A DNA stretch of 64,000 bases from an uncultured Actinomycetes bacterium (GTDB lineage Bacteria; Actinomycetota; Thermoleophilia; RBG-16-64-13): the NCBI GenBank assembly GCA_963806155.1, contig CAWDXC010000009.1, positions 198,520-262,519 on the forward strand, given 5' to 3'. Position 1 is the first letter of the stretch. Every line of letters starts with the position of its first letter. Shown here piece by piece: positions 21,768-50,717 of this stretch. The notes beneath the pieces are model-generated. The model did no database searches. It saw nothing but the letters and a program-made list of their open reading frames with translations, and had not been told where the DNA came from. Position numbers and translations under genes: made by a program.

Positions 21768-23318
21768 CTAAACGTCCTTCGCTGTTATGTGGTTGCTCGC
21801 CTCGGACACGCCCTTGGGGTCGAAGCTCTTCTTGATCCTTCTCAGCCAATAGGTGTAGTTCGAGGTGTGCGGACCGAAGAAGTCGTGCTGGAAGTCGTTG
21901 AACAGATGATGCGGCAGGCCGTAGTGACCGTTGACCGCGTTCGCGTTGGCCTTGCCCACGTATTCCATCGTCGCCGCGGCGACATCCGGAGCGGGCGTCC
22001 AGCGCAGGAGGACCTCCGCATGGGCGAGCTGTCCCTGCTCGAGAGAGGTGATGAACGGGTCGGTGTTGTCCGGGAAGACCAGTCCTCGCTCGATGAGATC
22101 CTTCTTGTCCTCGCGCGAATGCTGGATGAAGTTCGACTGCACCAGATAGGAGTCTGTGCCGAAGACCTCTCCGCCGAAGACGCCCGTGGCCCGCATGGTC
22201 TCCCGTATGGAAGAGGTCACGCGTATGAACCGCCACATGTAGGCGTTGTGCACGTCGCCCTCTTCCACCGCCTTCAAGGAAGTCGCTTTGGTCTCCTTGA
22301 TGATCAGGTCGAGGACCGCCTTCTTGTACTCGAAATCTCGGGGCGAGTTCCCAGCTATGACGACGCACAAGCCCGGGCCCACGATCTCTTTGGAGAACTG
22401 CTCGGCCAGTACGAGCTCCTCCTCGTTGCTGGTGGCAAGGTTCGCGGCCACCATGTTGGGGTTGAAGCCCATGGCGCCGAAAGCGACCTCGCTCTCGCCT
22501 AACTTCTGGATGGCGGCCTTGCGGCCCTCCTCGTTGGGCCAGGAGAGGTACCTGAGCAAGAAGTTCTCCGGTGCTTTGGCGGGCGCGTAGTTGGGCGAGA
22601 TGCCCTTGATCTCCATCGTCGGAGGACCGGGCCAGTGGTAGACCTTGAGCGCGGCCCTCGTATACACGCCCAGTCCCCCGAGCGGCATCACGTTCCCGCG
22701 CACGATCCCCCGCACCGAGGGTCCGGGGCCGTCCCCGCAAAACCACTCACCGAGGGCGGCCAAGGAGCCGGCCCGGATGACCTCTCCCTCGGGCGTGACC
22801 CATTCCAACGCGAGCTGGTTCCTCTCCCCGATGCTGCACGCCCCGCTCATGTGGCCGATGCCTTCGTGAGCGGCCAGCGGCAACGCGGACGTGTTACCTC
22901 CCGCTCCGTTCACGTTGCAGGTAAGGCCCCTCTTCATCAGCTCGGCCTGGAGTTGCGCGTACACGACGTACGGCTCCACCACTGCGTACATGTTCTCTTC
23001 GTTGATCTCGATGATGCGGTTCATGCGCCGCATATCCAGCTTGATGCAGCCCGGGCCGCCTGCGTCGCAGTAGATCCCCCAGCCTGTGCTGGAGGCTTTG
23101 AACTGGACTCCGAACCTGTTGCACAGCCTTACGATCGCCTGGACCTCTTCGGTGCTACCCGGCATGAGGATGGCTTCGAAACGGGGCATGAAGTCCTGGG
23201 CCGAGGCGGCCTGGCCCGAGCGCCAGGCCCAGGCGTCCAGGTCCACCGGCTCGTTCGAGATGTTCTCCGGCCCGACGATGGCCTCGAAGGCCTGATACTG
23301 CTCTTTCGTGAGTGCCAT
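21768..23318 (-). CDS. FAD-binding oxidoreductase, PCMH/VAO-type FAD-linked oxidase (type A, ~520 aa)
   Basis: FAD-binding PCMH domain; paralogs at 35733..37298 and decayed 37312..38897. Confidence 0.75.
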   Translation of the reverse strand: MALTKEQYQAFEAIVGPENISNEPVDLDAWAWRSGQAASAQDFMPRFEAILMPGSTEEVQAIVRLCNRFGVQFKASSTGWGIYCDAGGPGCIKLDMRRMNRIIEINEENMYAVVEPYVVYAQLQAELMKRGLTCNVNGAGGNTSALPLAAHEGIGHMSGACSIGERNQLALEWVTPEGEVIRAGSLAALGEWFCGDGPGPSVRGIVRGNVMPLGGLGVYTRAALKVYHWPGPPTMEIKGISPNYAPAKAPENFLLRYLSWPNEEGRKAAIQKLGESEVAFGAMGFNPNMVAANLATSNEEELVLAEQFSKEIVGPGLCVVIAGNSPRDFEYKKAVLDLIIKETKATSLKAVEEGDVHNAYMWRFIRVTSSIRETMRATGVFGGEVFGTDSYLVQSNFIQHSREDKKDLIERGLVFPDNTDPFITSLEQGQLAHAEVLLRWTPAPDVAAATMEYVGKANANAVNGHYGLPHHLFNDFQHDFFGPHTSNYTYWLRRIKKSFDPKGVSEASNHITAKDV

Positions 23319-23331
23319 TTCCCAACGCCCC

Positions 23332-24588
23332 TTAAATCGCTTTGTCCAAGATCTCGACAACATCGAGGACCTTGAGGTGGCTGCCGTTCCCATCAAGGTT
23401 CTGCACGCAATGAGGACAGGCTGTGACCAGAGCCTCCGCGCCCGTGGACTCCGCTTCGTTCAGCCGTTCGGCGGCGGTCCATTTGGCGAACTCGGGGTTG
23501 GTCTCCCTCACCCCTCCCCCGGCCCCACAGCACCAAGCGTATTCCCGGACGCGGTCCATCTCCACCAGCTTGAGGCCGGGTATGCTCTTGAGGAGGTCAC
23601 GGGCGGGTTCGTAGACACCATAGGTGCCGCGCCGCAGGGTGCGGGGCGGATCGTAGACCCGCATGTGCCTCTCCCGCTGCACGCCTTTCCAGTGGATCCA
23701 GGGCTCGCTCAAGCGGCCCAGGTGGCAGGGATCGTGGTAGGTGACAGTTATGTCCACGGCTTTCTTGGGCTTGAGCTTCTTCTTCTCGACCAACTGGGCC
23801 AGGTACTCGGTGATGTGCCACACCTTGATGTCCATGCCCAGCCCGAGCTTGTCGTAGAGCACCTTGAAGTACTGGTAACAGTGAGCACAGCCGGTGACCA
23901 GTTCCGTGGCCCCTGACTCCTTGAAGCGCGCCACGTTCAGTTCGGCCTGTTTGAGAGATTCGTCCAGATATCCCATCTCGTAGGCCCGGCCCCCGCAGCA
24001 CAGCTCGCGGTCCTTGGCGATGCCCACGTCAACTCCCGCTTTCTTGAGCAAGGAGAGGGCGGCTCGGGCCGCGTTGCCGGCGGCTTTGTCGTAGTTGGCC
24101 AGACAGCCGGCGTGATAGACGACCGGGACTTTCTTCTGTGTATAGTCCTTGACGTCCAGCCCTTTGTACCACTGGTCCCGTTTGCCTTTTGCTCCGAGCA
24201 CCATCGGCCCCTGCTTCTGCATGGTCTGCACGAGCTTGTCCCACACCGGCACGGTCTGGCCGTTCTTCACGCACTCCTGACGGATAGCGTACAGAGGCTC
24301 GAGGACGTCCATCTCCATCGCATACTTGCAGGAGATGTCGCAGGCGCCGCACAGATTGCAGTCATAGACGACCTCCGCCACTTTGGGGGTGTACTCCACC
24401 CGGCCGCGGAGCAGCCCCAGGCCGGAGCCCATGCGGCCGCCGCCGGAGTAGGAATGGAAGTTGTAGCGCGAGATGCTGGGGCACGCATTGGCATGCTCGT
24501 AGCCGGTCACCTTCTCCAAGGGGATGAACTTGCAGGCAGAGCACCGGCAACACGACTCCATCTCCGCTCGATAGTCTTCTAGCGCCAT
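23332..24588 (-). CDS. (Fe-S)-binding protein with two CCG domains (GlcF/HdrD-like)
   Basis: two 4Fe-4S Cys clusters (CCRCSACKF..., CNLCGACDISC) plus CCG motifs (ELCCGG, WCCGAGG). Confidence 0.8.
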   Translation of the reverse strand: MALEDYRAEMESCCRCSACKFIPLEKVTGYEHANACPSISRYNFHSYSGGGRMGSGLGLLRGRVEYTPKVAEVVYDCNLCGACDISCKYAMEMDVLEPLYAIRQECVKNGQTVPVWDKLVQTMQKQGPMVLGAKGKRDQWYKGLDVKDYTQKKVPVVYHAGCLANYDKAAGNAARAALSLLKKAGVDVGIAKDRELCCGGRAYEMGYLDESLKQAELNVARFKESGATELVTGCAHCYQYFKVLYDKLGLGMDIKVWHITEYLAQLVEKKKLKPKKAVDITVTYHDPCHLGRLSEPWIHWKGVQRERHMRVYDPPRTLRRGTYGVYEPARDLLKSIPGLKLVEMDRVREYAWCCGAGGGVRETNPEFAKWTAAERLNEAESTGAEALVTACPHCVQNLDGNGSHLKVLDVVEILDKAI

Positions 24589-24605
24589 AGTTCTGGTCCC
24601 TTCCC

Positions 24606-26072
24606 TTAGAAGCACAGTTTGCCCGGACTCAGGATGCCGGCCGGGTCAACGATCGCCTTGAACTTCTTAAGCGCTTCCACGCTGGCAGCATCCCGATTCA
24701 TGATGTCTCTGGCCGCTTCCCCGAAAGGTCTCGAGAAGAAGGCGCCGGCGCTCATCAACGGCTGGATGGCGCTCGTGGCAAGACCTCTAACGGCGCAGGT
24801 CTCGGTCTTGTCCGTGGGGTCGTAGAAGAGGTTGAACTCCACGTGGCAACTGCTGCCCTGGACGATAGGCTGCAGGTAGACGCCCATCTTGGGCGCGGGA
24901 TACCCGACCGCTTCGGCGGTTTCGCTCATGACCTTGACCAGCCCGGGGATCTTCGCGTAGGTGGTGAGGAAGAAGATATCCTGGCAGCCTCCCTGCCGCC
25001 GGAGCTTCCAGTAAGGCTCGCCGGACGGCCGGCGTATGGCTTCCAGGAACTGGCCGGCACCGACCCCGCCGAGACTCTGCGCGGTCTGCAGACCGAGGCG
25101 CTGCAGGAGCTCACGGGTGTCCTCGATCTGGCCCTGCATCCTCATCTCGGGCAGATACTTGTAAGCGCCCAGGTTGAAGAAGAGGACCCACTGAGGCAGC
25201 TTGGCGACCAGCCGGGTGTAGTCCTCGTCGCTCTGGCTCATCAGCGCGACGACATCGGCACCGTTGAGGAGCAACAGTTCGTTGCCCAGTCTCAGCCGCA
25301 TCAGCCAGTGGGCGGCCTCCAGGAGCTTGGCCACGTCGCCGGACCCGATGAAGTAGGGCTGCTCGATCTCCGGGACCAGTTCGCACCGGGCCGAAGCCCA
25401 GGTGACTATGCCCATCGTCCCCTGCGCGCCCTGGAAGAGACGGTGCAGAGACATGGCCGACGGACCCGCGGCTTCCTTCTGCCGGCCCCCCGCCTTGCGC
25501 TGCTCTTCGATGGTGCCGGGGCCGGCCGCTGCGCCGGTGCGGAACATATCTCCCGTGCCGAAGATGACTTCGGTGGAACCGATGGGATCGGCGATATCCC
25601 AATGGTAATGAGGCATGGTCACCGGTTCCCGGGAGAGCATGCTACCGACCACCGACTTGGTCTTGCGCGGCTGCAGCGGCATGTTCAGCCTCAGTCCCTT
25701 CTTGGCCGCCGCCTTGCTCAGTTCGCCGAAGGTGACTCCCGGTTCGACGATCGACACCACACGCTCGAAGGGATCGATCAGGTCGATCTTCTTCATGCCG
25801 CTCATGTCCACGACCACGGCATCGCCGGTGGAGGGGACGGTGTCGCCGTAGAAATGAGGGCCGCCGGAGCTGACCGGAACGAGAGGTGTGCCGGCCTCTT
25901 TGGCCAGGTTCACAAGCTTCTGGACGGTCTCCGCCGAATCGGCCTTGACCACGAACCGCGGACGCACTCTGCCGACGAAACTGAGATCACCGGCGTAGGC
26001 GTCCAGGACGGACGGGTCCTGGCTGACGCTACGTGCCCCGGCGATCTCCTGCAATGCCTTCTCCGTTATCAT
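24606..26072 (-). CDS. FAD-binding oxidoreductase, GlcD/D-lactate dehydrogenase-like (type B)
   Basis: FAD-binding domain PLVPVSSGGPHFYGDTVP; C-terminal FAD-oxidase_C; paralog at 34217..35689. Confidence 0.8.
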   Translation of the reverse strand: MITEKALQEIAGARSVSQDPSVLDAYAGDLSFVGRVRPRFVVKADSAETVQKLVNLAKEAGTPLVPVSSGGPHFYGDTVPSTGDAVVVDMSGMKKIDLIDPFERVVSIVEPGVTFGELSKAAAKKGLRLNMPLQPRKTKSVVGSMLSREPVTMPHYHWDIADPIGSTEVIFGTGDMFRTGAAAGPGTIEEQRKAGGRQKEAAGPSAMSLHRLFQGAQGTMGIVTWASARCELVPEIEQPYFIGSGDVAKLLEAAHWLMRLRLGNELLLLNGADVVALMSQSDEDYTRLVAKLPQWVLFFNLGAYKYLPEMRMQGQIEDTRELLQRLGLQTAQSLGGVGAGQFLEAIRRPSGEPYWKLRRQGGCQDIFFLTTYAKIPGLVKVMSETAEAVGYPAPKMGVYLQPIVQGSSCHVEFNLFYDPTDKTETCAVRGLATSAIQPLMSAGAFFSRPFGEAARDIMNRDAASVEALKKFKAIVDPAGILSPGKLCF

Positions 26073-26323: not shown

Positions 26324-27259
26324 CTAGAGCTCGAGCTCCGGGGGCAGAGGCGGCATCTGGCCGGCCAGTTCGGCGATGAGCCCCTCGTACTTGGCAAGCC
26401 GCGAATCGATGTCGATCTCGCCGCTGCGCGCCGCCTGCGCAGCGAGGAACAGCCACAAGTGAGCGCGAAGCAGGTCCGCCCGCGTGTGATTCCCTGGAGA
26501 GACCGCTCCGAAGACCGTCTCCTGGTAGGCGCCGAACAGGCTCAGGGCTATGAGGTCATCACGCGCGGCCGGTCTTCCCGCAGGCGCGGGGACCGCCGTG
26601 AGCTCCTTCATGATGCGCGCCACAGTACCGGCGAGACCTTCCTGGATGGACCGGCGCAGGTCGACGTCCTCCTGCGTTCCTTCCACGCGGATCACGGCAA
26701 AGGCGGCCACACCGAGTTGAAACACGCGAAAGTGGCTGAAGACGTCCCACAGCAAGCGCTCCGCCGGATCCTCCAAAGAAGCCGTCTTCTCGTCGGCGTA
26801 GCTGACACCCCAGTTCGTCAGCACACTCACGCATTCGGCCAGGAGCCTGCGTTTGCTGGGAAAGTGGGTGTAGAAGAGACTGGCGGTGATGCCCAGCCGA
26901 CGCATGAGGGTGGAGACGTGCGTGTTCTTGTAGCCCTTGGTGGAGAACTCGCGCGTGGCAAGAGCCAGGATGCGATTGTGCATCCGCTCATACTCCAGAG
27001 ACACAAGATCCACCGCGGTCTCGTTCGCCTGGTCGACGCGATGCTGAAGTCTATCCTCGATCTCGAGGATGGAAAGTCCGGTCCGTTTCAGCTCGGCGAT
27101 CTCCTGCAGGATCTTGACGTGGTCTTCGGTGTACAAGGATCGGCTGGCAGCGGTCTTCTGAGGGCGGGGGAGCAATCCCAGCCTGAGATAGTAGTGGATG
27201 GTGGTTCGGGGTACCCCACTCACCTTCTCGAGCTCCCGAATGGTAAACGCCTGGATCAC
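26324..27259 (-). CDS. MerR-HTH / TetR-like fusion transcriptional regulator, paralog 1
   Basis: N-term MerR HTH TIRELEKVSGVPRTTIHYYLRLGLLP, then TetR-like HTH domain (~residues 90-150); GTG start with GAGGAG SD. Confidence 0.75.
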   Translation of the reverse strand: MIQAFTIRELEKVSGVPRTTIHYYLRLGLLPRPQKTAASRSLYTEDHVKILQEIAELKRTGLSILEIEDRLQHRVDQANETAVDLVSLEYERMHNRILALATREFSTKGYKNTHVSTLMRRLGITASLFYTHFPSKRRLLAECVSVLTNWGVSYADEKTASLEDPAERLLWDVFSHFRVFQLGVAAFAVIRVEGTQEDVDLRRSIQEGLAGTVARIMKELTAVPAPAGRPAARDDLIALSLFGAYQETVFGAVSPGNHTRADLLRAHLWLFLAAQAARSGEIDIDSRLAKYEGLIAELAGQMPPLPPELEL

Positions 27260-31344: not shown

Positions 31345-31407
31345 CGCGTGCTTAGGATTAAGCTTGATAGGTCGGCTGGCGGCCCCAGCGAGATAGAAGG
31401 AGCGAGA

Positions 31408-40235: not shown

Positions 40236-41195
40236 TCACCCCCAGCTTAGGCTTGCCAGGTCCCGCATGGCGATGCGGACGGTGCCCAGAGAGGCATCGC
40301 CTGAGATGACGGTGGAACCATCGATGCGCAGGCGGACCTCCGTCCCATCGGCGGCGACCAGATCGACCAGACACTCCTCGCCGGGCTCGCTGACGCTAAG
40401 GCGGGAGACGCGGGTCAACTCGACGTCGATCTGAGCCGGGCCGAGGGCTCCGGTGAGTTGGGTCTTGCCATTGCAGCGGACTACGCCGAGGTCGAACGGC
40501 GTGCCGTCGCGGCTGACCACCCGGGCTGGAGCATCCGGACCCGGCGAAGTGCCCTGCTCTGAAGAAGCCGCCGAAGCAAGCCAGCGCGTGACGGCATCGA
40601 CCATGAAGTTGACCACTTGCTCCGGTGGATAGCGGTCGTCGAGGCGGGAACGGAACCAGAGGTTCTCGGCGAGGCCGATGAAGCCATAGGCGGCAAGTTC
40701 GGCATCGACGTCACGAGCCCGCCCCGCCTGTATCGCAGCCTCCAGATCCCTCCGGAGAGGCTCGGTGAGGATCTCGTACGCTTCGCGGGCCTTGGTCTTG
40801 ACCTCCACGTCCGGGGACAGTTCGGCCGCGCGCAGCAGGTTGATGATCCCCGGCCACCAGTCGTAGAGGTGGACGGCCTCCACCCGCGGACCGACTCTCG
40901 TGAAGAAATCGCCTTCTCGTATCTTGGGAAGTGATTCGAATTCCCTGATCCGCTCGGTAACGTGGTCGAAACAGGTGAGCAGGAGCTCCTTCTTGTTGCG
41001 GAAGTAGAGATAGAAGGTGCCCTTCCCCATGTTCAGCGAATCAGTGATGTCGCCGACCCGCACGCGATCGTAGCCGACCTCGTTGAACATGATGACCGCC
41101 CGCTCGATGATGCGGTCTCGCTTGTCCTTGAGCTCGTCTCCCGCAGGGGCCGCGGCGACGGCGGAGAGGGCAGCATGCTTGCCTGAAGCCATCAT
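40236..41195 (-). CDS. TetR family regulator with ~120-aa C-terminal extra domain
   Basis: ORF 40236..41378; start placed at ATG 41195 (MMASGK..) so that the downstream promoter lies in intergenic DNA; HTH RIIERAVIMFNEVGYDRVRVGDITDSLNMGKGTFYLYF. Confidence 0.65.
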   Translation of the reverse strand: MMASGKHAALSAVAAAPAGDELKDKRDRIIERAVIMFNEVGYDRVRVGDITDSLNMGKGTFYLYFRNKKELLLTCFDHVTERIREFESLPKIREGDFFTRVGPRVEAVHLYDWWPGIINLLRAAELSPDVEVKTKAREAYEILTEPLRRDLEAAIQAGRARDVDAELAAYGFIGLAENLWFRSRLDDRYPPEQVVNFMVDAVTRWLASAASSEQGTSPGPDAPARVVSRDGTPFDLGVVRCNGKTQLTGALGPAQIDVELTRVSRLSVSEPGEECLVDLVAADGTEVRLRIDGSTVISGDASLGTVRIAMRDLASLSWG

Positions 41196-41332
41196 AGACT
41201 GGTCTCTTCCTTGTGCCTCGCGTTCGTTCGCCCGCGGATGGGAAGTGACTCCCCAGTCACTGTCTGAGAGCATATCAGAATCGCGTTTTAGAGCCAAGCG
41301 TTCTGTTGGCCCTAACGCCGCGAGGGCAAAGC

Positions 41333-41361
41333 TTGACAGGCTCATAAGAAATCGGTAGTGT
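41333..41361 (+). promoter_or_regulatory. candidate promoter TTGACA, 17-nt spacer, -10 TAGTGT
   Basis: sigma70/sigmaA-like hexamers with ideal spacing, ~170 nt upstream of alpha2 ATG. Confidence 0.5.
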
Positions 41362-41366
41362 GGTTG

Positions 41367-41394
41367 TGACTGACCCACCAGTCATTCTGACTGA
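41367..41394. promoter_or_regulatory. TGACTG-n6-CAGTCA inverted repeat plus extra TGACTGA copy, candidate operator at +1
   Basis: same TGACTGAC core as the etfBA palindrome at 46713..46732. Confidence 0.4.
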
Positions 41395-41530
41395 TGCGAC
41401 GGTCATCCAGCGAATCCCGGGGGGGCTTCACATCTTTGCAGAACTTCTATTCATCACGGGCTTGTCGATCTGACGGGCAAACAAGCCACCCCCTCACGGC
41501 CCAGCGACACGGACAGAGGAGAGGTACGCG

Positions 41531-44179
41531 ATGACAGCGGATGAATCCAAGAGGCAGGTTCGCATCTCCGACAAGACGGTCCTCAAGTGTCTCGCCCAGT
41601 GTTCCTTCGCCCAGCAAGGCGAGTTGGCGTCTGTTGACGTGAAGGACGGGAAGATCGTCCGCATCCGTCCCCATCGCCACACCGAGCGGTACACGGTAGA
41701 AGAGCTGGGGCAGTATGAGCTAAACAAGGACGGCGTGAAGTACAAGACGCCACTCAAGGGTCTTCTGGCTCCCTACCAGATCGCCTACAAGAAGCGGGTC
41801 TACTCCCCCAACCGGATACTCTATCCACTCAAAAGGGTGGACTGGGATCCCAAAGGGGAACGCAACCCGCAGAACCGGGGTAAGAGCAAGTACGTGCGGA
41901 TCAGTTGGGATGAGGCCACGACCATCATCGCCGACGAGATCAAACGCATCCACAAGGAATACGGACCCCTTGGCATTCTTGCCCACGGAGACGGACACGG
42001 GGAGACCAAGACGATCCACGGACCTCACGCTGTCCAGATGGATCTGCTGCGTCTGATGGGTGGCTACACTCAGGCCATCAGAAATGCCGACAGCTGGGAG
42101 GGCTGGTACTGGGGCGCCAAGCATGTCTGGGGCAACGGGGAGAACGGCCTCCTACTACCCGCCGACAACATCATGAACGATGTGACCCAGAACACGGACA
42201 TGATCATCCACATCGGCGCCGATCTCGAAACGACGCCGTGGGGCTTCGCCGGCCAATTCCCCAGCACGGTCATCTACTACTGGCAGAAGTTAGGTAAGAA
42301 GCAGGTGTTCGTCTCTCCCGATCTCAACTATTCCGGAGCCGTGCACGCGAGCAAGTGGATCCCCATCCTGCCCAACACCGATGCCGCGCTGCATCTGGCC
42401 ATCGCCTACGTGTGGATGACCGAAGGCACCTACGACAAGGATTACGTAGCTGACCATGTGGTCGGCTTCGACAAGTTCGAGGACTATGTGCTGGGAAGAG
42501 AAGACGGGGTAGCTAAGACCCCGGAGTGGGCTTCGGCTAAGACAGGCGTGCCCGAGTGGACCATCAAAGCTCTTGCCCGGGAGTGGGCGGCTCAGCCCAC
42601 CACGGTCATGCACTTCTACGGCGGCTCCTACATCCGCGGTCCTTACTCGCACGAGCCCGCCCGCCTGGAAGCGTGCCTGCTCGGCATGCAAGGGTTGGGC
42701 AAACCGGGCTGCCACCAGTACTTCAAGATGGGGGGCGATCACCACTGGATGTGCGATACGCCCCGCCCGGTGAGAACAATCGATGACGTGCGGTTTGGGG
42801 TCGCGGGGAACGTCTGGGCTGGTCAGGGGCAGGTCTATATTTCATCGAAGCAGATCATTCCCAAGACGCAGGTCAGCCAGGCCATCCTCAATCCACCCAC
42901 CAGCACGATGGGGAGCACCATCCTTATGGGGCCGCTTGAAGACCAGTTCAAACGCTACGACTACCCCATCCCCGCGGAAGAGGGCGGCACCGAGATCCAC
43001 ATGATCTGGATGGACAACCCCTGCCGCACCACCTGCTGGAACGACGGCTTCCTGACTGTGGAAGCCTTCCGGAGCCCCAAGATCGAGACTCTGGTTGTGC
43101 AACACCCCTGGCTGGAAAACGACACCATCCTGGCCGACATCATCCTGCCTATCAACACCAAGCTGGAAGAAGAAGACATCGCTCGGTTCGCTCAAAACGT
43201 GGCGGTTCACGGGTGCGCTATTGAAGACCAAGCCATAGAGCCTGTCGGGGAGTCTTTGAGCGATTATGAAGCTGTGGGTGAGGTGGCTAAGAAACTGGGT
43301 CTCTATGAGGAGTTCACCCGCGGGAAGACCGTCCGGGAAAAGATCAGACTGGGCTTCCAGGACATGGCCATCGACGATCTGATCAGCTGGGAGGAGTTCT
43401 CCGACAAGAGGTACTACATCGTCCCCACCGACCCCGAATGGGAGAAGGTTCCCGCTGGTCTGAGAGAGTTCTACGAGGATCCGGAAGCGCATCCCTTGGA
43501 GACCCCCAGCGGCAAGCTCGAGTTCTACTCACAGCGGCTGGCGGACAACTTCCCCGACGACACCGAAAGAGGGCCCCTTCCGAAGTGGGTCGAAAGCAGC
43601 GTCACCCACGATGAGAGGGTCTCCAGCCCCCGGGCGAAGAAGTATCCGCTCCTTCTCATGAGCAACCACGGAAGATGGAGGACCCACGCCCAGAACGACG
43701 ACATCACCTGGCAACGGGAGATCATGACCTGCAAGGTCAGGGGCTGGGACGGCTACATGTACGAACCCATCTGGATCAATCCCAAAGACGCCGAAGCCCG
43801 AGGTATCAAGGACGGGGACATCGTCAAGCTCTTCAACGAACGAGGCACGGTGCTCTGCGGGGCTCTGGTGTGGGAACGGATCATGCCGGGAGCGGTCTCG
43901 AGCGACCACGGCTCCCGGGCGGACCTGATCTGCACCGACGGCCCCGAGGGCTACCTCGATAGAGGCGGGGCCAACAACCTGATCTCGCCAATAAACGGAA
44001 CGTCCCAGAACTGCTGGGGCATGGCCACCAGCGGCTATCTGGTGGACGTACAGAAGGTGAGCATGGCCGAAATGGAGGAGTGGAAGAAGAAATATCCGGC
44101 GGCCTTTGCGAGGAAGTACGACCCGGCTTCCGGTCTCAGGTTCGAGGCGTGGGTGCTGGAGGAAGGAGAGGCCCGATGA
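41531..44179 (+). CDS. molybdopterin oxidoreductase large subunit, transhydroxylase-like (alpha2; ~85% identical to alpha1)
   Basis: 882 aa; GAGGAGAGG SD; same motifs as alpha1. Confidence 0.8.
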   Translation: MTADESKRQVRISDKTVLKCLAQCSFAQQGELASVDVKDGKIVRIRPHRHTERYTVEELGQYELNKDGVKYKTPLKGLLAPYQIAYKKRVYSPNRILYPLKRVDWDPKGERNPQNRGKSKYVRISWDEATTIIADEIKRIHKEYGPLGILAHGDGHGETKTIHGPHAVQMDLLRLMGGYTQAIRNADSWEGWYWGAKHVWGNGENGLLLPADNIMNDVTQNTDMIIHIGADLETTPWGFAGQFPSTVIYYWQKLGKKQVFVSPDLNYSGAVHASKWIPILPNTDAALHLAIAYVWMTEGTYDKDYVADHVVGFDKFEDYVLGREDGVAKTPEWASAKTGVPEWTIKALAREWAAQPTTVMHFYGGSYIRGPYSHEPARLEACLLGMQGLGKPGCHQYFKMGGDHHWMCDTPRPVRTIDDVRFGVAGNVWAGQGQVYISSKQIIPKTQVSQAILNPPTSTMGSTILMGPLEDQFKRYDYPIPAEEGGTEIHMIWMDNPCRTTCWNDGFLTVEAFRSPKIETLVVQHPWLENDTILADIILPINTKLEEEDIARFAQNVAVHGCAIEDQAIEPVGESLSDYEAVGEVAKKLGLYEEFTRGKTVREKIRLGFQDMAIDDLISWEEFSDKRYYIVPTDPEWEKVPAGLREFYEDPEAHPLETPSGKLEFYSQRLADNFPDDTERGPLPKWVESSVTHDERVSSPRAKKYPLLLMSNHGRWRTHAQNDDITWQREIMTCKVRGWDGYMYEPIWINPKDAEARGIKDGDIVKLFNERGTVLCGALVWERIMPGAVSSDHGSRADLICTDGPEGYLDRGGANNLISPINGTSQNCWGMATSGYLVDVQKVSMAEMEEWKKKYPAAFARKYDPASGLRFEAWVLEEGEAR

Positions 44180-45018
44180 GCAAGGTCTTCATCTTTGACA
44201 CATCCATCTGTAATGGGTGCTACTGCTGCCAGCTCGCCTGCAAGGACGAGCACTGCGGGAACGACTGGACTCCCTACGCCAAACCGCAGCCCGACACCGG
44301 TCAGTTCTGGCTCAAGCTTTCCGAGCATGTGCGGGGTACGGTCCCCAAGGTGAAGGTGCACTACCTGGCGGCTCTGTGTAACCACTGTGACCAGGCCGCC
44401 TGCCTGGCCGCCTGCCAGGTAGAAGGGACCCTCTACAAGAGGGACGACGGTCTGGTCATCATCGACCCCGAGAAATGCACGGGCTGCACCAATTGCGTGA
44501 GCGCCTGCCCCTACCACGTCATCTATATGAACGAGAACCTGAACATCGCCCAGAAGTGCACCGGATGTGCTCATCTCTTGGACAACGGCTGGACGGAGCC
44601 CCGGTGTGTAGACGCGTGCCCCACCGGAGCGCTACAGTTCATGGAGGAAGCGGAGGCTCAGGGGCCAGTCCAGAGCTCGGAGGTGCTCCACCCGGAATAC
44701 GAGCAGAAGCCCCGGGTCTACTACCTGAACATCCCCAAGAAGTTCATCGCGGGTACCGTCTACGATCCTGTGAAGAAAGAGGTGGTGATCGGAGCTAGTT
44801 GCACCCTCACGAGCAACGGCAGCACCTGGACCACCACCACCGACGGCTTCGGGGACTTCTGGTTCGAGGGGCTCGAGATTGGCAGCTATTCCCTGGAGAT
44901 CGCGGCCCTGGGATTCCCCGCCAAGACCTTCGAGGACATTAGTACTGCGATGGACGTGAACCTGGGAGACATAGCCGTGGCCAAAGACAGCAGCAGCCAA
45001 GCCGGAGGTCGCCAATGA
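44176..45018 (+). CDS. 4Fe-4S ferredoxin beta subunit with C-terminal beta-sandwich domain (beta2)
   Basis: ATGA overlap with alpha2; same Cys clusters as beta1. Confidence 0.8.
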   Translation: MSKVFIFDTSICNGCYCCQLACKDEHCGNDWTPYAKPQPDTGQFWLKLSEHVRGTVPKVKVHYLAALCNHCDQAACLAACQVEGTLYKRDDGLVIIDPEKCTGCTNCVSACPYHVIYMNENLNIAQKCTGCAHLLDNGWTEPRCVDACPTGALQFMEEAEAQGPVQSSEVLHPEYEQKPRVYYLNIPKKFIAGTVYDPVKKEVVIGASCTLTSNGSTWTTTTDGFGDFWFEGLEIGSYSLEIAALGFPAKTFEDISTAMDVNLGDIAVAKDSSSQAGGRQ

Positions 45019-45115: not shown

Positions 45116-46594
45116 ATGTCGACCGACTTGGAAGACAACAATGCAGGCATCAGTAGGAAGGCCGGCGTCAGCCGGCGCGAATTCTTGAAGATTGCCGGCG
45201 CCGCCGGCGCAACAGTAGGCTTGGGCGCAGGATTGGGCGGGCTGGTGGCCGCCTGTGGAGAGGAAGCCGAGACGACCACTACGGCCGGTGTTACCACCAC
45301 GGCCGGTGTAACCACCACAGCCGGTGTCACCACCACAGCCGCCCCTACCACAGTCAGTAGCGCCGCCGAAGTCGGGCGTGAGGTCAAACTCGGTTTCATC
45401 ACCCCGATTACCGGCGGCCTGGCTCCTTTCGGAGCGACCGACCAGTACTGCGTCAAGCGGGCGCAGGCGGTGATCGGTGACGGGCTGGTAAGTGGCGACG
45501 GTCTGAAACACCCCGTCACCATCAAGCTCCAGGATAGTCAGTCGGACCCGAACCGGGCGGCCCAGGTCGCAGGCGACCTCATCATGAACGACAAGATAGA
45601 CCTTATGCTCGTGGCCTCGACGCCCGATAACGTTGTCCCGGTGGCCGGGACGTGTGAGGCCATGGGGATGCCGTGCATCTCCTTCGACTGCCCCTGGCAG
45701 GGCTTCTTCGCCCCCCGGACCAACGGCGACTATTCAATTGTGTTCAACTGGACCTATCACGTCTTCTTCGGGGCGGAAGAGGGGACCGCCATCATGCTGG
45801 ACCTTCTGAGCCAGTTGCCGACCAACAAGATCGTGGCCATGATGTATCCCAACGACGCCGACGGCAACTCCCTTCACCCTATCCATGCTGCGGCGTTCGA
45901 GGCGGCGGGCTTTACCCTCGTTGATGCCAGCGGTTTCCCGGTCGGCCTGGAGGATTTCACGGAGCAGATCAGCATGTTCAAGAAGGCGGGCGCCGAACAA
46001 GGGCACGGCGTGATGCCTCCGGCGGACTTCACCAACTTCTGGAAACAGTCGATCCAGCAGGGCTGGACGCCGAAGATGTCCATGTGGGCCAAGTCGCTGC
46101 TCTTCCCGGAGTCCCTCGAAGCTCTGGGGCCCATCGGCAACAATCTCTGCTGCGACCAGTGGTGGGGACCGGACTGGCCCTTCACGTCTACCGTCCTTGG
46201 ACAGACTTGCCGACAATTCACAGACGACTTCGAGGCCGAAGCGAAGCGGCAGTGGACCCAGCCCTTGGCCCACATGATGCTCTTCGAGTGGGCCATCGAC
46301 TTGCTCCAGCGGACGGTCAACGTGGACGACACGAACGCTATCATGGCGGCGATCAAGACCACGAAGCTGGACACTATCGCCGGCCCGGTCGATTTCTCGG
46401 CTCCGGTCGAACCGGTCGGCCCACCGTGGGCCGTTGGTCCGAGGCACATCGTGGAGAACGTCTACAAGGTGGGCCTCTGCGCCGGCCAGTGGCGCATGGG
46501 CGGCAAGTACATGTTCGACCTGATCAGCGTCAGCAATGGCGGGCACCCCCTGATCCCGGTGCAGGACAAGGCGCTGCCGTATACCGAGGCCTGA
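45116..46594 (+). CDS. ABC transporter substrate-binding lipoprotein, PBP1 family, paralog 4
   Basis: lipobox LVAACG; 15-bp tandem repeats encode (TTTAGV)x3 linker; ~65% identical to paralog 3. Confidence 0.85.
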   Translation: MSTDLEDNNAGISRKAGVSRREFLKIAGAAGATVGLGAGLGGLVAACGEEAETTTTAGVTTTAGVTTTAGVTTTAAPTTVSSAAEVGREVKLGFITPITGGLAPFGATDQYCVKRAQAVIGDGLVSGDGLKHPVTIKLQDSQSDPNRAAQVAGDLIMNDKIDLMLVASTPDNVVPVAGTCEAMGMPCISFDCPWQGFFAPRTNGDYSIVFNWTYHVFFGAEEGTAIMLDLLSQLPTNKIVAMMYPNDADGNSLHPIHAAAFEAAGFTLVDASGFPVGLEDFTEQISMFKKAGAEQGHGVMPPADFTNFWKQSIQQGWTPKMSMWAKSLLFPESLEALGPIGNNLCCDQWWGPDWPFTSTVLGQTCRQFTDDFEAEAKRQWTQPLAHMMLFEWAIDLLQRTVNVDDTNAIMAAIKTTKLDTIAGPVDFSAPVEPVGPPWAVGPRHIVENVYKVGLCAGQWRMGGKYMFDLISVSNGGHPLIPVQDKALPYTEA

Positions 46595-46626
46595 ACAGCT
46601 GGCTCACTGCGCGGTTGAGTGGACGC

Positions 46627-46664: not shown

Positions 46665-46678
46665 CCCCGCCGGCGGGC

Positions 46679-46707
46679 TTGACAAGCCTTGGGTAACTGG
46701 GTAGGGT
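46679..46707 (+). promoter_or_regulatory. candidate etfBA promoter TTGACA, 17-nt spacer, -10 TAGGGT
   Basis: ideal spacing; immediately followed by palindrome. Confidence 0.5.
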
Positions 46708-46712
46708 GGTGC

Positions 46713-46732
46713 ATGACTGACGAGTCAGTCAT
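46713..46732. promoter_or_regulatory. palindrome ATGACTGA-cgag-TCAGTCAT, candidate operator
   Basis: perfect 8-bp arms directly downstream of the -10. Confidence 0.45.
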
Positions 46733-46834
46733 AACCCGAGCCGGCATCTACTGGACAGGTGTTTGACCCCGATGACCAAGGGGACGGGTCGGTCTGCATG
46801 CCGCCCGTCTTTCCCTAGAAGGGACGCGAAGCCC

Positions 46835-47623
46835 ATGTTGACTATCGTGGTCTGTGCCAAGCAAGTGGTCGACCCCGAGGCGCCTCTCTCCTTGTTCGAG
46901 ATCGCAGCCGATGGGAAAAACCTGGTCCCCCCCCCGGGCACTCCGCCGGTCTCAAGCACGTTTGACGAAAACGCCCTGGAGGCGGCGCTGCGCGTCAAGG
47001 AAGCGGTCGGCGCCAAAGTCGTCGTCCTCAGTATGGGGAACAAGCTGGCGAAGGCGGTCCTTAAGAAGACATTAGCGGCAGGCGCGGATGAACTGATCCT
47101 TCTGGAGGACGAGCAGTTCGTCGACTTGGAGAGCAGGGGTACGGCTCTGGCTCTGGCTAAGGCCATCGAGAAGATAGGCGACGTGGACCTCATCCTCTGC
47201 GGCCGGCAGGCCGCGGACACCGATGCCGGCCAGGTGGGGACTGGCATCGCGGCCATTCTGGACATCCCTGCCATAACCCTGGCCCAGAAACTAGAGGTCA
47301 AAGACGGCACCGTCCGGGTGGAGCGTCTCGTCGCCGAGGGGTATGAGGTCGTCGAGGCTGCCCTGCCGGCGTTGGTCACGGCCAGTAACGAGGTCGGGGA
47401 GTTGCGCTTTCCCCCAGTGAAAGCAGTGATCGCCGCGCAGAAGATGGATGTCACGGTCTGGGATGCTCAGGCGCTCGGGGTCGATCTTGCTGGTTCCGCC
47501 CGGACCGATCTCGTGAAGTTCTATGTTCCTGATCGCAAAGTCGAGTGTCAATTGATCGAGGGAAGCAGTCCGGAGGAGATCGCGGAGGGCATAGCCGCGG
47601 TCCTGAAGACCCGTGTCGTCTGA
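46835..47623 (+). CDS. etfB: electron transfer flavoprotein beta subunit
   Basis: MLTIVVCAKQVVDPE N-terminus, ETF beta fold. Confidence 0.85.
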   Translation: MLTIVVCAKQVVDPEAPLSLFEIAADGKNLVPPPGTPPVSSTFDENALEAALRVKEAVGAKVVVLSMGNKLAKAVLKKTLAAGADELILLEDEQFVDLESRGTALALAKAIEKIGDVDLILCGRQAADTDAGQVGTGIAAILDIPAITLAQKLEVKDGTVRVERLVAEGYEVVEAALPALVTASNEVGELRFPPVKAVIAAQKMDVTVWDAQALGVDLAGSARTDLVKFYVPDRKVECQLIEGSSPEEIAEGIAAVLKTRVV

Positions 47624-47663
47624 CGACCGGCCCGCCGCAAAGTCTATCTAGGGGGCACCGAAA

Positions 47664-48662
47664 GTGAGTGAAAGCAAGGGTGTGCTGTTCCTGGCCGAAC
47701 GTAGGGGCCAGGGACTCTCCAGGATGAGCGCCGAGCTTGCCACCGTCGGCCTCGAGCTCGCGGGTCACATGGGCGAGGGCTTGTCTGCAGTGCTGGTGGG
47801 CACCGATCTGGGAGACGGTGCGCAAGAGTTGATCGACATGGGCGTGCAGAAGGTGTACGTGGTCGAGGATCCGTTGCTCTCTCGATACGGTCCGGAGCCC
47901 TATCTGGCGCTCATGACTCAGATCTGCGAGGACGTGAAACCCAGGGTGCTATTGATGGGCCACACTGAGATCGGCCGAGACCTGGCGCCCCGCCTGGCGT
48001 TCAAGCTGGACACCGGCCTCGCACCGAACTGTGTCGCCCTGCACTTCGAACAGGGATCCGGGAACCTCCAGGCGACCCGTCCGGTCTTCGGGGGGAAGGC
48101 TCACGGGCTCTTCACCCTGACGGGTGCTACGCCGCACATACTCACGGTGGGCCTTAAAGTCTTTGAGCCGGCTGCCGCCGAGGCCGGCCGGCAGGGTGAA
48201 GTGGTGACTTTCGCTCCTGCGATCGACCCCGGCGCCTTCAAGATGTCGGTCGTCGACCGGGTCGAGGACATCACCGAGGGGGTCCGACTCGAGGACGCGG
48301 CCGTCATCGTCGCGGGAGGGCGCGGTGTGGGCAGCACCGAGGGTTTTGCCCAACTCCGGGAACTGGCGGCCTTGTTGGGAGGATGCATAGGCGCATCCCG
48401 GGCGCCGGTCGACAACGGGTTGGTCCCCAGCAGTCTACAGGTGGGTCTGACCGGCACGGTGGTGAGCCCCAACGTTTATATCGCCATCGGCATCTCTGGT
48501 GCCGCGCAGCATATGGCCGGTTGCTCGGCGTCCAAGACCATCATCGCGGTCAATCGCGACCTAGAAGCCCCGATCTTCCAGAGGGCCCATTTCGGAGCCG
48601 TCGCCGATTGGAAGGACATCCTGCCGCCGCTGACCGAGAAGTGCCGGTCGATGCTGAGCTAG
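47664..48662 (+). CDS. etfA: electron transfer flavoprotein alpha subunit
   Basis: GTG start; C-terminal FAD-binding motif SGAAQHMAG...IAVNRD. Confidence 0.85.
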   Translation: MSESKGVLFLAERRGQGLSRMSAELATVGLELAGHMGEGLSAVLVGTDLGDGAQELIDMGVQKVYVVEDPLLSRYGPEPYLALMTQICEDVKPRVLLMGHTEIGRDLAPRLAFKLDTGLAPNCVALHFEQGSGNLQATRPVFGGKAHGLFTLTGATPHILTVGLKVFEPAAAEAGRQGEVVTFAPAIDPGAFKMSVVDRVEDITEGVRLEDAAVIVAGGRGVGSTEGFAQLRELAALLGGCIGASRAPVDNGLVPSSLQVGLTGTVVSPNVYIAIGISGAAQHMAGCSASKTIIAVNRDLEAPIFQRAHFGAVADWKDILPPLTEKCRSMLS

Positions 48663-48708
48663 AGGGAACAGGACTTCATCCCGGCCGCTTGGCCCAAGGA
48701 GAACGGAG

Positions 48709-50717
48709 TTGACGTACACGTCCGCAGTCTTCGTGGTGGTCCTCCTGGCCGCCCTCGCGCTCTTCGTCTACTTCCTCGTGCCGCGGGTGCCGCTACCTGC
48801 TCCTGGGCCGGCCCGAGCCCAGGGCCGACCAGGTGGCGCGAAGGACCGGGGGGTTCCTGGCGCTAGTGTTCGGACAGAAGAAGCTCTTCAAGGAGCGCGT
48901 GGGCATCATCCACTTCTTCATCTTCTGGGGCTTCATCGTCATCGCGTTCGGCACTCTGCAGATCATCGGGGAGGGCCTGAGCGAGGACTTCTCGCTTCCT
49001 CTCATCGGTGACAGCAAGGCCTTCTATCTTCTGAAGGACATACTGAGCGTCCTGGTGCTGGTCGGGGTCGTCGTCGCGGCCTATATCCGCTACGTCGTGC
49101 GGCCGGCGCGCCTCAAGGCGAACCTCGAGGCCGGCGTGATTCTGGCTCTGATCTTCGGCCTCATCGTCACGGAGTTCTTCTACAGCGGCATCTCCTACGC
49201 CCTCGATCCCAGCGAGAGCCATTCACTGGCCTTCGTGACCGTGGCCATCGTCGCAGTTGGTGGACGGGGCAAGCGTGAGTACGTTGGAGTTGGCCCAGGA
49301 CATCCTCTGGTGGCTGCACATCCTTCTACTCCTGGGGTTCCTCGTCTACATCCCCATCTCCAAGCACCTGCACCTCCTCGCCTGCCCCTTCAACGAGTGG
49401 CTGAGGAACCTCAAGCCGCGAGGCGGGCAGATCTACCCGGTAGATTTCGAGAGCGAGGACGTGGAAGAGTTCGGCGTGAGCCGGGTGGAAGGCTTCACCA
49501 AGAAGCAGCTCCTCGACCTGTACGCATGTGCCGAGTGCGGCCGCTGCCAGGACAACTGCCCGGCCTACCAGAGCGGCAAGACTCTCTCCCCCAAGCTGCT
49601 GATGACCAAGCTCCGCGATCACCTGGTGGAGCAGGGGCCGAGCCTTCTACGAAAGACCAACACATCATCCTCCGAAGAAACGCCTGCCGGGGATGCAGCC
49701 GCACCCGCCATGATCGGCGACGTGATATCCACCGAAGAGATATGGGCCTGCACCACCTGCTACTCCTGCCAGGAGCAGTGCCCCGTGATGAACGAGCACG
49801 TCAACAAGATCGTCGACATGCGCCGGCACCTCGTCCTTATGGAGGGTGAGTTCCCCCACGAAGCGACCCTCGTGTTCAGGAACATGGAAGTGAACGGTAA
49901 TCCGCTCGGCGAGAGCGCGCTCATCCGCGGGGATCACCTCCGCAAGCTGGGGGTCCCCACCATCGGGGAAAACCCGGATGCGGAGATGATGTATTGGCCA
50001 GGATGCAGTGGTGCGCTCGACGCACGGAATCAAAAGGTCTCGACCGCTTTTGTGAAGCTGGCGGAATCTGCAGGCGTGTCGCTCGCCACGCTCGGGAATG
50101 AGGAGAAGTGCTGTGGGGAGGCGGCCCGGCGCCTGGGCAACGAGTACCTCTACCAGACCCTCGCCCTGGGAAACGTGGAGGTCCTCAACAGTTACGGCGT
50201 CAAAAGAATCGTCACCCAATGCCCACACTGTTTCAACACGCTCAAGAACGAGTATCCGCAGCTGGGCGGCGACTTCGAAGTCCTGCACCATACCCAGCTC
50301 CTCTCGGAACTCATCGAGGCCGGGAGGCTCGAGCTGGGAGCGTCGGAGCGCAAGAAGGTCACCTATCACGACGCCTGCTACCTAGGCCGCTACAACGGCA
50401 TCTACGAACTGCCGCGACAACTTCTTCGGACCGCCGGGCTCGACCTGGTAGAGATGCCCCGCAGGAAGACCAAGGCGTTCTGCTGCGGCGGGGGCGGTGG
50501 CCGGATGTGGCTGGAAGAGGACGAGGGTGAGCGCATAAACAACATCCGGACCGACGAGGTCCTCGGCGTGTCGCCGGATATCGCCGCCGTCGCCTGCCCT
50601 TATTGCCTGACCATGCTGAAGGACGGTGTCGATGCTCGCGAAGCGGGCGACCGGGTGCGAGTCATGGATATAGCCGAGATCCTCCAAGTGACCGTTTCGA
50701 GCAGTCCCACCCCCTAG
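48709..50717 (+). pseudogene. EtfD-like membrane-bound (Fe-S)-binding oxidoreductase (NarI/HdrE-like TM domain fused to CCG-domain FeS protein), two apparent frameshifts (~48788, ~49265)
   Basis: TM helices across frames 48709/48833/49257; cytoplasmic part has CAECGRCQDNCP, CTTCYSCQEQCP and CCG motifs (EKCCGE, FCCGGGGG); follows etfBA directly. Confidence 0.6.

Follow-up and report, generated by a model that had tools for sequence, protein, structure and literature searches.

How might electrons that soluble flavoproteins withdraw from a substrate reach the menaquinone pool when the genes involved lie among molybdoenzyme operons? The question is raised by a 64-kb stretch of DNA from an uncultured soil Actinomycetes bacterium (64,000 nucleotides of contig CAWDXC010000009.1, GC content ~62%; hereafter the window), in which a first-pass annotation had described two sets of flavo-iron-sulfur genes, the etfB and etfA genes of an electron-transferring flavoprotein (ETF) and an EtfD-like membrane anchor. 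Our analysis bears out the gene sets, etfBA and the identity of EtfD, whereas the gene count of the second set and the reading of etfD as a fusion in a single frame are revised. Two paralogous operons are predicted to encode a soluble heteromeric flavo-iron-sulfur dehydrogenase, here called D-F-A after its two flavin adenine dinucleotide (FAD) subunits, D and A, and its iron-sulfur subunit, F. We propose that electrons pass from D-F-A via ETF and EtfD to menaquinone, a route that we give an even chance of being correct as a whole and in which we infer the substrate, what F does and which way the electrons flow. While EtfD is, by its sequence, a fresh member of a known family, the D-F-A triad represents an uncharacterised variant of the FAD-plus-CCG dehydrogenase architecture (GlcDEF type), and its joint function with ETF is a prediction.

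Two paralogous flavo-iron-sulfur gene sets

Genes were called from open reading frames (ORFs), with the coding frame told by the GC content of third codon positions (GC3), and domains were assigned from Pfam (Table 1). Set 1 is one tight minus-strand operon behind a gene for a MerR-TetR fusion regulator, in the order D-F-A-SDR-Mo, where SDR is a short-chain dehydrogenase/reductase and Mo a molybdoenzyme. D1 probably starts at 26072, giving a protein of 488 aa, the length of its homologues; the A1 ORF as listed reaches upstream to 23396. In set 2 the order is F-A-A-D, behind a TetR gene. The paralogues share 49% (D1/D2, E 1e-159), 52% (F1/F2, E 4e-165) and 43% identity (A1/A2b, E 2e-141), and judged by these values the two sets are true, old paralogues. 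D and A are related to each other only distantly, at ~25-32% identity across the FAD domain. The description of each set as two FAD enzymes plus a CCG protein holds for set 1, whereas in set 2 a third FAD gene, A2a, had been overlooked. A2a and A2b form a tandem pair separated by 13 bp, and at 83% nucleotide and ~88% amino acid identity their duplication looks recent. The placement of both sets and etfBA among molybdoenzyme operons is correct: molybdoenzyme alpha/beta pairs adjoin etfBAD, and a molybdoenzyme gene closes set 1.

Table 1 Features of the window with their positions, strands and supporting evidence
Feature	Position	Strand	Evidence and remarks
Molybdopterin oxidoreductase with N-terminal Fe4S4 domain	18386-20659	-	Pfam Molybdopterin, Molydop_binding, Molybdop_Fe4S4; last gene of set-1 operon
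SDR, conserved triad companion	20830-21600	-	Pfam adh_short 3.6e-54; directly downstream of A1
A1, second VAO/PCMH-type FAD subunit, ~516 aa	21768-23318	-	Pfam FAD_binding_4 4e-22, no other domain
F1, soluble Fe-S subunit resembling HdrD and the soluble domain of EtfD	23332-24615	-	Pfam CCG 1.5e-30 (two CCG), Fer4_8
D1, VAO/PCMH-fold FAD subunit	24606-26072/26105	-	Pfam FAD_binding_4 3.8e-17, weak FAD-oxidase_C at C-terminus
MerR-TetR fusion regulator, upstream of set 1	26324-27259	-	Pfam MerR_1 + TetR_N
D2, D1 paralogue	34217-35689	-	Pfam FAD_binding_4 8.7e-18, weak FAD-oxidase_C
A2b, intact A-type FAD subunit, 521 aa	35733-37298	-	Pfam FAD_binding_4 3.6e-20
A2a, tandem copy of A2b, broken frame	37312-38897	-	Three ORF pieces 87-89% identical to A2b
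F2, F1 paralogue	38894-40171	-	Pfam CCG 4.3e-29, Fer4_8
TetR regulator, heads set-2 operon	40236-41378	-	Pfam TetR_N; divergent from Mo/ETF operon
Two neighbouring palindromes, candidate operator	41367-41405	.	TGACTGACCCACCAGTCA / TGACTGATGCGACGGTCA; TGACTG-N6-CAGTCA type; overlap annotated 5' end of TetR ORF
Mo alpha/beta pair 2 (MoA2-MoB2), distant pyrogallol-transhydroxylase-like	41531-45018	+	Pfam; PDB 4v4c_A 397 bits; no TAT signal
TAT-lipoprotein solute-binding protein, between Mo pair and etfB	45116-46594	+	Pfam Peripla_BP_6, TAT_signal; SRREFLK, lipobox, Thr-rich linker
etfB	46835-47623	+	Pfam ETF 3e-33
etfA	47664-48662	+	Pfam ETF + ETF_alpha
etfD, EtfD/EMO orthologue: NarI-like haem-b domain with five transmembrane segments, 2 cubane [4Fe-4S] motifs, 2 CCG	48709-50717	+	Frame broken at 48789 and 49254-49261
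Two Mo alpha/beta pairs (MoA3-MoB3-MoA4-MoB4), straight after etfD, closely homologous to pyrogallol-phloroglucinol transhydroxylase	51038-57776	+	Pfam AhtL-like_1st, Molybdopterin; CarboxypepD_reg in beta subunits

The nature of D, F and A

Database names point to glycolate oxidation for this family. The metagenomic homologues of A (1332, ~515 aa) and D (5126), collected at E <= 1e-10, are mostly called 'glycolate oxidase' (JGI) or 'FAD/FMN-containing dehydrogenase', and the combination of two FAD_binding_4 proteins with a CCG protein is that of GlcD, GlcE and GlcF. A plain glycolate (GlcDEF) or lactate (LutABC or D-lactate dehydrogenase, D-LDH) utilisation cluster, which the first-pass annotation had set against its own proposal, nevertheless has an almost negligible probability in view of the scores obtained with curated NCBIfam/TIGRFAM equivalog models. 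With TIGR00387 (GlcD, cut-off 568) D1, D2, A1 and A2b score 33, 49, 56 and 43 bits, and with NF008408 (GlcD, cut-off 897) 26, 24, 20 and 34 bits; NF008439 (GlcE, cut-off 284) gives 23.5 bits for D1 and no match for D2, A1 or A2b, and NF008434 (GlcF, cut-off 333) gives 45 bits for F1 and 27 for F2. Because none of the three subunits nears its cut-off, we do not regard D-F-A as a glycolate or lactate cluster, and the scores correct the automatic 'glycolate oxidase' annotation of a large family. The FAD-oxidase_C match of D1 is likewise weak and confined to the last ~30 residues.

The triad shares with GlcDEF, and with the fused YdiJ and Dld-II, an architecture of two FAD_binding_4 (VAO-superfamily) proteins and one Fer4_8/2xCCG protein, all of them soluble. 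It differs in that its proteins fall 6- to 30-fold under the equivalog cut-offs, each FAD subunit has its full length (488 and 515 aa, compared with 358 positions in the curated GlcE model), the genes are ordered D-F-A or F-A-D, and the setting is one of molybdoenzymes and ETF. F, moreover, is nearer to TfrB and the soluble domain of EtfD than to GlcF: its best NCBIfam model is TfrB (162 bits for F1 and 154 for F2, under the cut-off of 385), followed by LdhH and GlpC, and the top PDB match of F1 is EtfD 9ojn (1.3e-20), followed by HdrB. Hydropathy analysis of the F protein found no transmembrane segment, and both CCG motifs are intact. These comparisons identify F as a soluble homologue of the cytoplasmic half of EtfD/HdrD that carries [4Fe-4S] motifs and a pair of CCG domains, the type that holds non-cubane clusters.

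A division of the flavoproteins into a GlcD-like and a PCMH-like type, as made in the first-pass annotation, is not tenable, D being as VAO/PCMH-like as A. The top PDB matches of both are 4-phenol oxidoreductases of the VAO/PCMH group, namely vanillyl-alcohol dehydrogenase (8s7*), 4-ethylphenol oxidase (7pbg), eugenol oxidase (EUGO) and PCMH. Glycolate oxidase (9qgz) and D-LDH rank lower, and by sequence the VAO/PCMH group leads 2-hydroxyacid dehydrogenases and AGPS by 20-30 bits. The significant alignment is limited to the FAD domain; identities are <=21%. An AlphaFold2 (AF2) model of D1 (pLDDT 70, pTM 0.74) fits VAO, PCMH and EUGO along its whole length with TM-scores of 0.70-0.75 (0.74-0.75 for 9fge, 8s7t and 1dii, E ~1e-22), and matches mouse D-LDH (mLDHD, TM-score 0.68, E 4e-21) and AGPS almost equally well. 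As modelled, the full VAO/PCMH fold of D is certain and its subgroup is not; with near-equal matches both ways, we rejected the fold search as a discriminator between 4-phenol oxidoreductases and 2-hydroxyacid dehydrogenases. The AF2 model of A1, built from 11 sequences, was too poor for a fold search (pLDDT 49).

The phenolate-binding residues of VAO are Tyr108, Tyr503 and Arg504 (VAO numbering). In the alignment, the near-invariant Tyr82 of A falls opposite the Tyr of a motif shared by 4-phenol enzymes (NxxYGG; NFaYGG in 8s7s). The C-terminal part of A aligns insignificantly (2.7 bits), the Tyr-Arg pair landing in a segment that the A profile lacks, and D carries PHF at the Tyr position. We therefore treat a role of A as phenolic side-chain oxidase as a lead. 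D and A have a size similar to that of VAO/PCMH enzymes (~490-520 aa). In contrast to the PCMH type, the window lacks a PchC-like cytochrome c subunit, no CxxCH motif of a c-type cytochrome being present in any of its coding-like ORFs, and the co-encoded partner is the CCG Fe-S protein F.

An EtfD orthologue with a complete set of mapped ligands

Joined across its three frames, etfD yields a protein of 670 aa that covers 94-100% of homologues of ~655-760 aa. A profile of this repaired protein and 15 homologues (16 aligned sequences) matches the cryo-electron microscopy structure of Mycobacterium smegmatis EtfD (9ojn_A) with E 1.4e-181 and 608 bits, profile positions 12-675 pairing with chain residues 15-757. 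Hydropathy peaks mark five transmembrane segments (1-29, 63-90, 104-134, 136-163 and 196-225), the CxxCxxCxxxC motifs lie at positions 275 and 349, those of the CCG type at 469 and 593; the Pfam NarI match is marginal (E 0.067), and some homologues are matched by NarI.

The cofactor ligands listed for M. smegmatis EtfD (PMC13083937) were mapped onto the window protein by alignment. The haem b ligands His78/His241 (H87/H251 in Syntrophus aciditrophicus EMO) correspond to H69/H223 and the haem-propionate contacts Arg137/Arg306 to R128/R280, with Arg150, the third such contact, lying outside the mapping. Cubane cluster 1 (Cys301/304/307/311) corresponds to C275/278/281/285, cubane cluster 2 (Cys412/415/418/422) to C349/352/355/359, cluster D1 (Cys503/538/581/584) to C434/469/506/509, and cluster D2 (Cys637/672/673/709/712 with His583) to C558/593/594/631/634 with H508. 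All these positions are invariant in the alignment, as is the third conserved His of EMO-like domains (H223 in M. smegmatis, H233 in S. aciditrophicus, H205 here), which in the S. aciditrophicus EMO is the distal twin-haem ligand (bioRxiv 10.64898/2026.08.18.745454). The quinone-stacking Phe85/Phe230 are kept as F76/F212, which are conserved without being among the listed invariant positions. With a full-length match to 9ojn_A and every mapped haem and Fe-S ligand retained, the proposal of an EtfD-like membrane anchor is confirmed, and the haem-ligating histidines called for as a check are present in the alignment. The predicted product of 48709-50717 is thus an orthologue of M. smegmatis EtfD/EMO with a complete mapped ligand set and would, by analogy, function as an ETF:menaquinone oxidoreductase.

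It differs from the mycobacterial protein in lacking a ~265-aa disordered C-terminal tail and in carrying Cys470 (codon at about nt 50120), invariant in the 16 aligned sequences, in place of Thr539. In M. smegmatis, Thr539 forces a linear [3Fe-4S] cluster (PMC13083937). The first CCG motif of the window protein is intact and HdrB-like, and therefore a non-cubane [4Fe-4S] cluster rather than a linear [3Fe-4S] cluster is to be expected, which is relevant to the varying clusters that have been reported among EMOs. As in known systems, the gene follows etfB-etfA, but it lies in a polyphenol/molybdoenzyme island and not beside beta-oxidation genes.

Interrupted reading frames in etfD and A2a

The stretch assigned to etfD measures 2009 nt, which is not divisible by three, and reads in three frames, so that it is not one ORF. 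The first-pass description of a fused transmembrane and CCG Fe-S protein resembling mycobacterial EtfD was accordingly right about the identity and wrong about the single frame, which two +1 insertions interrupt: compared with the intact gene of its closest metagenomic relative (L007, 87% nucleotide identity), etfD is longer by one G at 48789 and by a net +1 within 49254-49261. A database protein of 480 aa encoded on a 698-kb contig (P0132) is 100% identical to the C-terminal etfD ORF and most likely stems from the source assembly, which suggests that the break is present in the deposited public record too. Intact orthologues exist in L007 (P0121, 86% identity), where the synteny etfA-etfD-MoAB-MoAB downstream is also the same, and in the metagenome-assembled genome (MAG) MFD00032.bin.1.257 (P0361, 82% identity). 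A2a is likewise split over three frames, by two single-base +1 insertions relative to A2b at ~38317 and ~37657. A scan of the window's gaps by GC3 and ORFs found no further frameshifts outside these two genes.

Substitutions per codon position number 22/10/85 between the soluble part of etfD and its L007 counterpart and 46/29/175 between A2a and A2b, a strong third-position bias. Because substitutions concentrate at third positions, both genes evolved as coding genes under purifying selection, and this bias, together with the intact copies in relatives, means that all four +1 insertions must have arisen very recently or be artefactual. In long-read 'MFD' MAGs, related loci have genes split into 2-4 pieces (heavily in L019 and L021, also in L012, L016 and L025), a sign of indel errors in this assembly series, which makes assembly error a serious possibility for the window as well. 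Most likely, the insertions in etfD and A2a are long-read assembly errors or very recent lesions.

An ETF of the bifurcating type

The EtfB-EtfA assignment at 46835-48662 is sound, both reading frames being intact and carrying Pfam ETF domains. In the PDB, EtfB scores 141 bits with CarD (6fah_B) and 126 with 4kpu_B, compared with 77 for the Paracoccus ETF, and EtfA correspondingly 228 bits with CarE (6fah_A) and 195 with 4kpu, compared with 148 for Paracoccus. For both subunits, the ETFs of Acidaminococcus fermentans and Thermotoga maritima and LctBC outrank those of Paracoccus and human, and by these scores the window ETF is closest to bifurcating-type (group 2) ETFs.

This affinity, far above that to the Paracoccus and human proteins, leaves room for a reversed or bifurcated flow, in which EtfAB would pass electrons through F to a reductive step of D/A on polyphenol intermediates, or in which D/A, F and EtfAB would act as a confurcating complex (compare Ldh-EtfAB and CarCDE) with EtfD as a high-potential outlet. 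The CCG domain of EtfD/EMO, homologous to F, receives electrons from ETF, and in Ldh-EtfAB a VAO-family flavoprotein is paired with an ETF of this kind (PMC9232219). In the corresponding cluster, LctBCD, a VAO-family flavoprotein gene likewise adjoins a bifurcating-clade EtfAB, the two presumably working together. However, LctD is a 2-hydroxyacid dehydrogenase that has neither a CCG subunit nor a membrane EtfD, whereas the window has two different VAO-fold subunits and F, and its VAO-type proteins are only marginally similar to LctD (E 1e-4 to 3e-3). The EtfAB of S. aciditrophicus, the partner of EMO, carries AMP, and no ferredoxin or NAD-binding partner was identified beside the triads. VAO-type enzymes, furthermore, are usually oxidative, and we consider a reversed or bifurcated flow distinctly unlikely.

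Neighbourhoods of the triad in other genomes

Relatives' loci were annotated by matching to the window's own proteins. A genome scan returned 80 loci, all in MAGs. They belong either to Actinomycetota, with Gaiellales and their relatives at identities of up to 95%, or to Chloroflexota, where most are Dehalococcoidia. The D-F-A order is strongly conserved over the annotated loci and an SDR often comes next; D-F-A-SDR recurs in L010 and many Dehalococcoidales loci, and the complete D-F-A-SDR-Mo order in L010. About six different layouts bring ETF genes next to the triad: A-D-etfB-etfA-etfD-regulator-D-F-A in L011, etfB-etfA-D-F-A in L016, D-F-A-etfB-etfA in L020, D<A<F<TetR< >SBP>etfB>etfA>etfD in L008 (SBP, solute-binding protein), and a lone etfB-like gene, with no etfA, in a Chloroflexia MAG (L001, 15567-16361), in L023 and in a Dehalococcoidia MAG (L062, 4633-5505). 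Because this adjacency recurs in such varied form, it supports a functional link between triad and ETF, as the first-pass annotation had supposed. The order etfB-etfA-etfD is itself found in L007, L008 and L011 and is common among 80 distant EtfD/EMO loci, 31 of which have etfA.

The layout of L008 is that of the window minus the Mo pair. Here, the plus-strand operon MoA2-MoB2, binding protein, etfB, etfA, etfD, MoA3-MoB3-MoA4-MoB4 diverges from the TetR gene of set 2, and two palindromes lie in the region between the TetR-F2 and MoA2-etfBAD operons. L008 has ACTGACCGTT...AACGGTCAGT at the equivalent place (6393-6431), with a related ACTGACCG palindrome; the window's palindromes are a candidate for a shared operator.

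In Actinomycetota and Chloroflexia, the neighbours of the triad usually include a MoA/MoB pair, a gene for a binding protein and one for a MerR-TetR regulator; the Mo pair adjoins the triad in L001, L004, L012, L013, L018, L020, L021 and L024, and the regulator gene lies upstream of D-F-A in L010, L011, L013, L017, L020 and L025, as well as beside MoAB in many relatives. This proximity, the Mo gene that closes set 1, and some Dehalococcoidaceae loci in which genes for an Fe-S beta-like protein and a distant Mo subunit come after A might mean that D-F-A is a redox partner of the molybdoenzymes, drawing electrons from the Fe-S beta subunit and turning the reaction into a net hydroxylation, as in resorcinol hydroxylase, rather than a substrate dehydrogenase in its own right. 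However, Mo enzymes are missing from the surroundings of many Dehalococcoidales triads and F-A pairs, the cap domains on two VAO-fold proteins of full size point to substrate chemistry rather than mere electron transfer, and literature searches gave no precedent; we hold a partnership of this kind to be quite improbable. Some Dehalococcoidales encode F-A only, with no D, in housekeeping contexts, and in L170 an aldehyde dehydrogenase gene follows. Given such units and the A/Fe-S beta-like/Mo loci (taken together, L170, 8727-11557, L171, 8747-11551, and L026-L045), the conserved core may be A and an Fe-S partner.

The proposed electron route

In the reading that we favour, D and A would oxidise a hydroxylated or phenolic intermediate of a pathway served by the transhydroxylase-like enzymes, and electrons would leave through the clusters of F to the nearby-encoded ETF, mirroring the docking of ETF on the homologous non-cubane-cluster domain of EMO (bioRxiv 10.64898/2026.08.18.745454). 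The EtfD orthologue would then reoxidise ETF via four Fe-S clusters and haem b and reduce menaquinone; the sequence ETF, EtfD/EMO, (methyl)menaquinone is established in homologues (PMC13083937; bioRxiv 10.64898/2026.08.18.745454). Pfam found no acyl-CoA dehydrogenase domain in any scanned ORF of the window and, as no c-type cytochrome is encoded either, no obvious ETF clients remain in it besides the VAO-type flavoproteins. The divergent arrangement of the TetR-F-A-D and etfBAD operons in both the window and L008 also speaks for the route. ETF-using enzymes are known in the VAO family, examples being Ldh-EtfAB (PDB 7qh2; PMC9232219) and the yeast D-lactate and D-2-hydroxyglutarate dehydrogenases (PMC6771786).

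Several points weigh against this route. If F accepts the electrons of D/A, ETF becomes dispensable, and if ETF is the acceptor, F is left without an explained role. The bifurcating-like ETF may permit a more complex or reverse flow. A phenolic substrate for D/A is deduced from context, the catalytic residues of A lying beyond the alignment and its C-terminal match being insignificant. In the sequence as given etfD is disrupted, so that the route may be non-functional in this organism, or the assembly may be wrong. D, F and A are essentially absent from the 80 EtfD/EMO loci (mostly at 40-50% identity) of a metagenome scan centred on EtfD, which comprises mostly distant relatives and is uninformative on the Actinomycetota clade; the link between ETF and triad appears to hold for this actinobacterial lineage and not for the whole EMO family. 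Most Dehalococcoidia D-F-A or F-A loci, finally, have no ETF within 10 kb, from which it follows that the link would be true for only part of the D-F-A family and that F may use another acceptor.

These last observations, together with the absence of ETF from minimal F-A pairs, agree with a self-contained D-F-A in the manner of GlcDEF, GlpABC and Dld-II, in which F would deliver electrons to the quinone pool or another soluble acceptor, ETF and EtfD would serve other clients such as acyl-CoA dehydrogenases, and the genes would adjoin because a catabolic island is regulated jointly. In known FAD/CCG dehydrogenases the CCG subunit serves as the output module, and GlpC, LdhH and TfrB are the NCBIfam matches of F. 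Yet F has no membrane segment, the 64 kb hold no other ETF client, and ETF genes set directly against the triad in some six gene orders are hard to explain without a functional link, and we regard a self-contained enzyme as rather unlikely.

Returning to the route through ETF, its most far-reaching form would make D-F-A a previously uncharacterised enzyme class: a heterodimer of two different VAO-fold flavoproteins wired to a soluble, HdrD/EMO-like F that docks ETF just as EMO does, with electrons running in a dedicated chain from a phenolic intermediate through D/A, F, ETF and EtfD to menaquinone. We put this forward tentatively and regard it as rather unlikely. Literature searches, whether for a described enzyme that combines VAO and CCG (with or without ETF) or for genome papers on Dehalococcoidia that mention the triad, returned nothing specific. 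The hydroxyhydroquinone dehydrogenase BtdLS of Azoarcus/Aromatoleum was considered as an FAD/Fe-S precedent beside a transhydroxylase-like hydroxylase and rejected, BtdS being a DoxX-family membrane protein. If the far-reaching form of the route is true, uncultured soil and peat Actinomycetota, and Dehalococcoidia with other acceptors, would gain respiratory energy from net polyphenol oxidation without O2, alongside transhydroxylase-type Mo enzymes. As the family accompanies pyrogallol-transhydroxylase-type enzymes, SDRs and, in Actinomycetota, ETF/EtfD, it offers a testable redox module for anaerobic polyphenol turnover in soils and peat. With EtfD encoded at a locus that holds no acyl-CoA dehydrogenase, the reach of EtfD/EMO would extend past fatty-acid beta-oxidation.

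The surrounding polyphenol/molybdoenzyme island

MoA4 matches the alpha subunit of pyrogallol-phloroglucinol transhydroxylase (4v4c_A) over its full length with 844 bits. No twin-arginine translocation (TAT) signal was found on the Mo alpha subunits, and the transhydroxylase-like enzymes are therefore expected to be cytoplasmic. Like AthL/BthL of Pelobacter acidigallici (PDB 4V4C), the window's beta subunits have a CarboxypepD_reg-like C-terminal domain; the window differs in that its alpha/beta pairs number four, all paralogous and two of them more distant (397 bits), and are co-encoded with D-F-A, ETF and EtfD. Transhydroxylation by the Pelobacter enzyme is not known to involve net electron transfer, and the enzyme is not reported to need D-F-A, ETF or EtfD. 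We infer from the TAT-lipoprotein binding proteins, esterases, transhydroxylase-type Mo enzymes and aldehyde:ferredoxin oxidoreductase that the island serves the uptake and conversion of (poly)phenolic compounds.

A further MoB gene is present besides the four pairs. The Mo enzyme of set 1 is unlike the others in the window, its nearest models being of the formate-dehydrogenase/NasC type at scores far under their cut-offs, and no beta subunit gene is adjacent to it. The SDR that follows A1 was considered as a phloroglucinol reductase; this was rejected, as NCBIfam and PDB give only generic FabG/glucose-dehydrogenase-like matches. A second MerR-TetR fusion gene, with the same unusual arrangement of a MerR_1 helix-turn-helix (HTH) followed by a TetR_N HTH, lies at 31348-32439.

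Five paralogous Peripla_BP_6 proteins (11664-13157, 15334-16842, 32625-34121, 45116-46594 and 57746-59542) share a TAT signal (SRREFLK), a lipobox (LAAC) and a linker rich in Thr. The window shows no recognisable gene for an ABC permease or ATPase; L001 has a BPD_transp_2/ABC_tran set between its two triads. Two CocE/NonD-family (S15) hydrolases (6322-8076 and 9682-11460), possibly esterases for phenolic esters, flank an IclR regulator (8506-9399), and one of them recurs by the triad in L010 and L018. At the far end of the window, an aldehyde:ferredoxin oxidoreductase gene (AFOR_N/AFOR_C, 60500-62443) adjoins that of a TIGR04076-family protein (62444-63253), and, together with the aldehyde dehydrogenase of L170, it hints at aldehyde intermediates.

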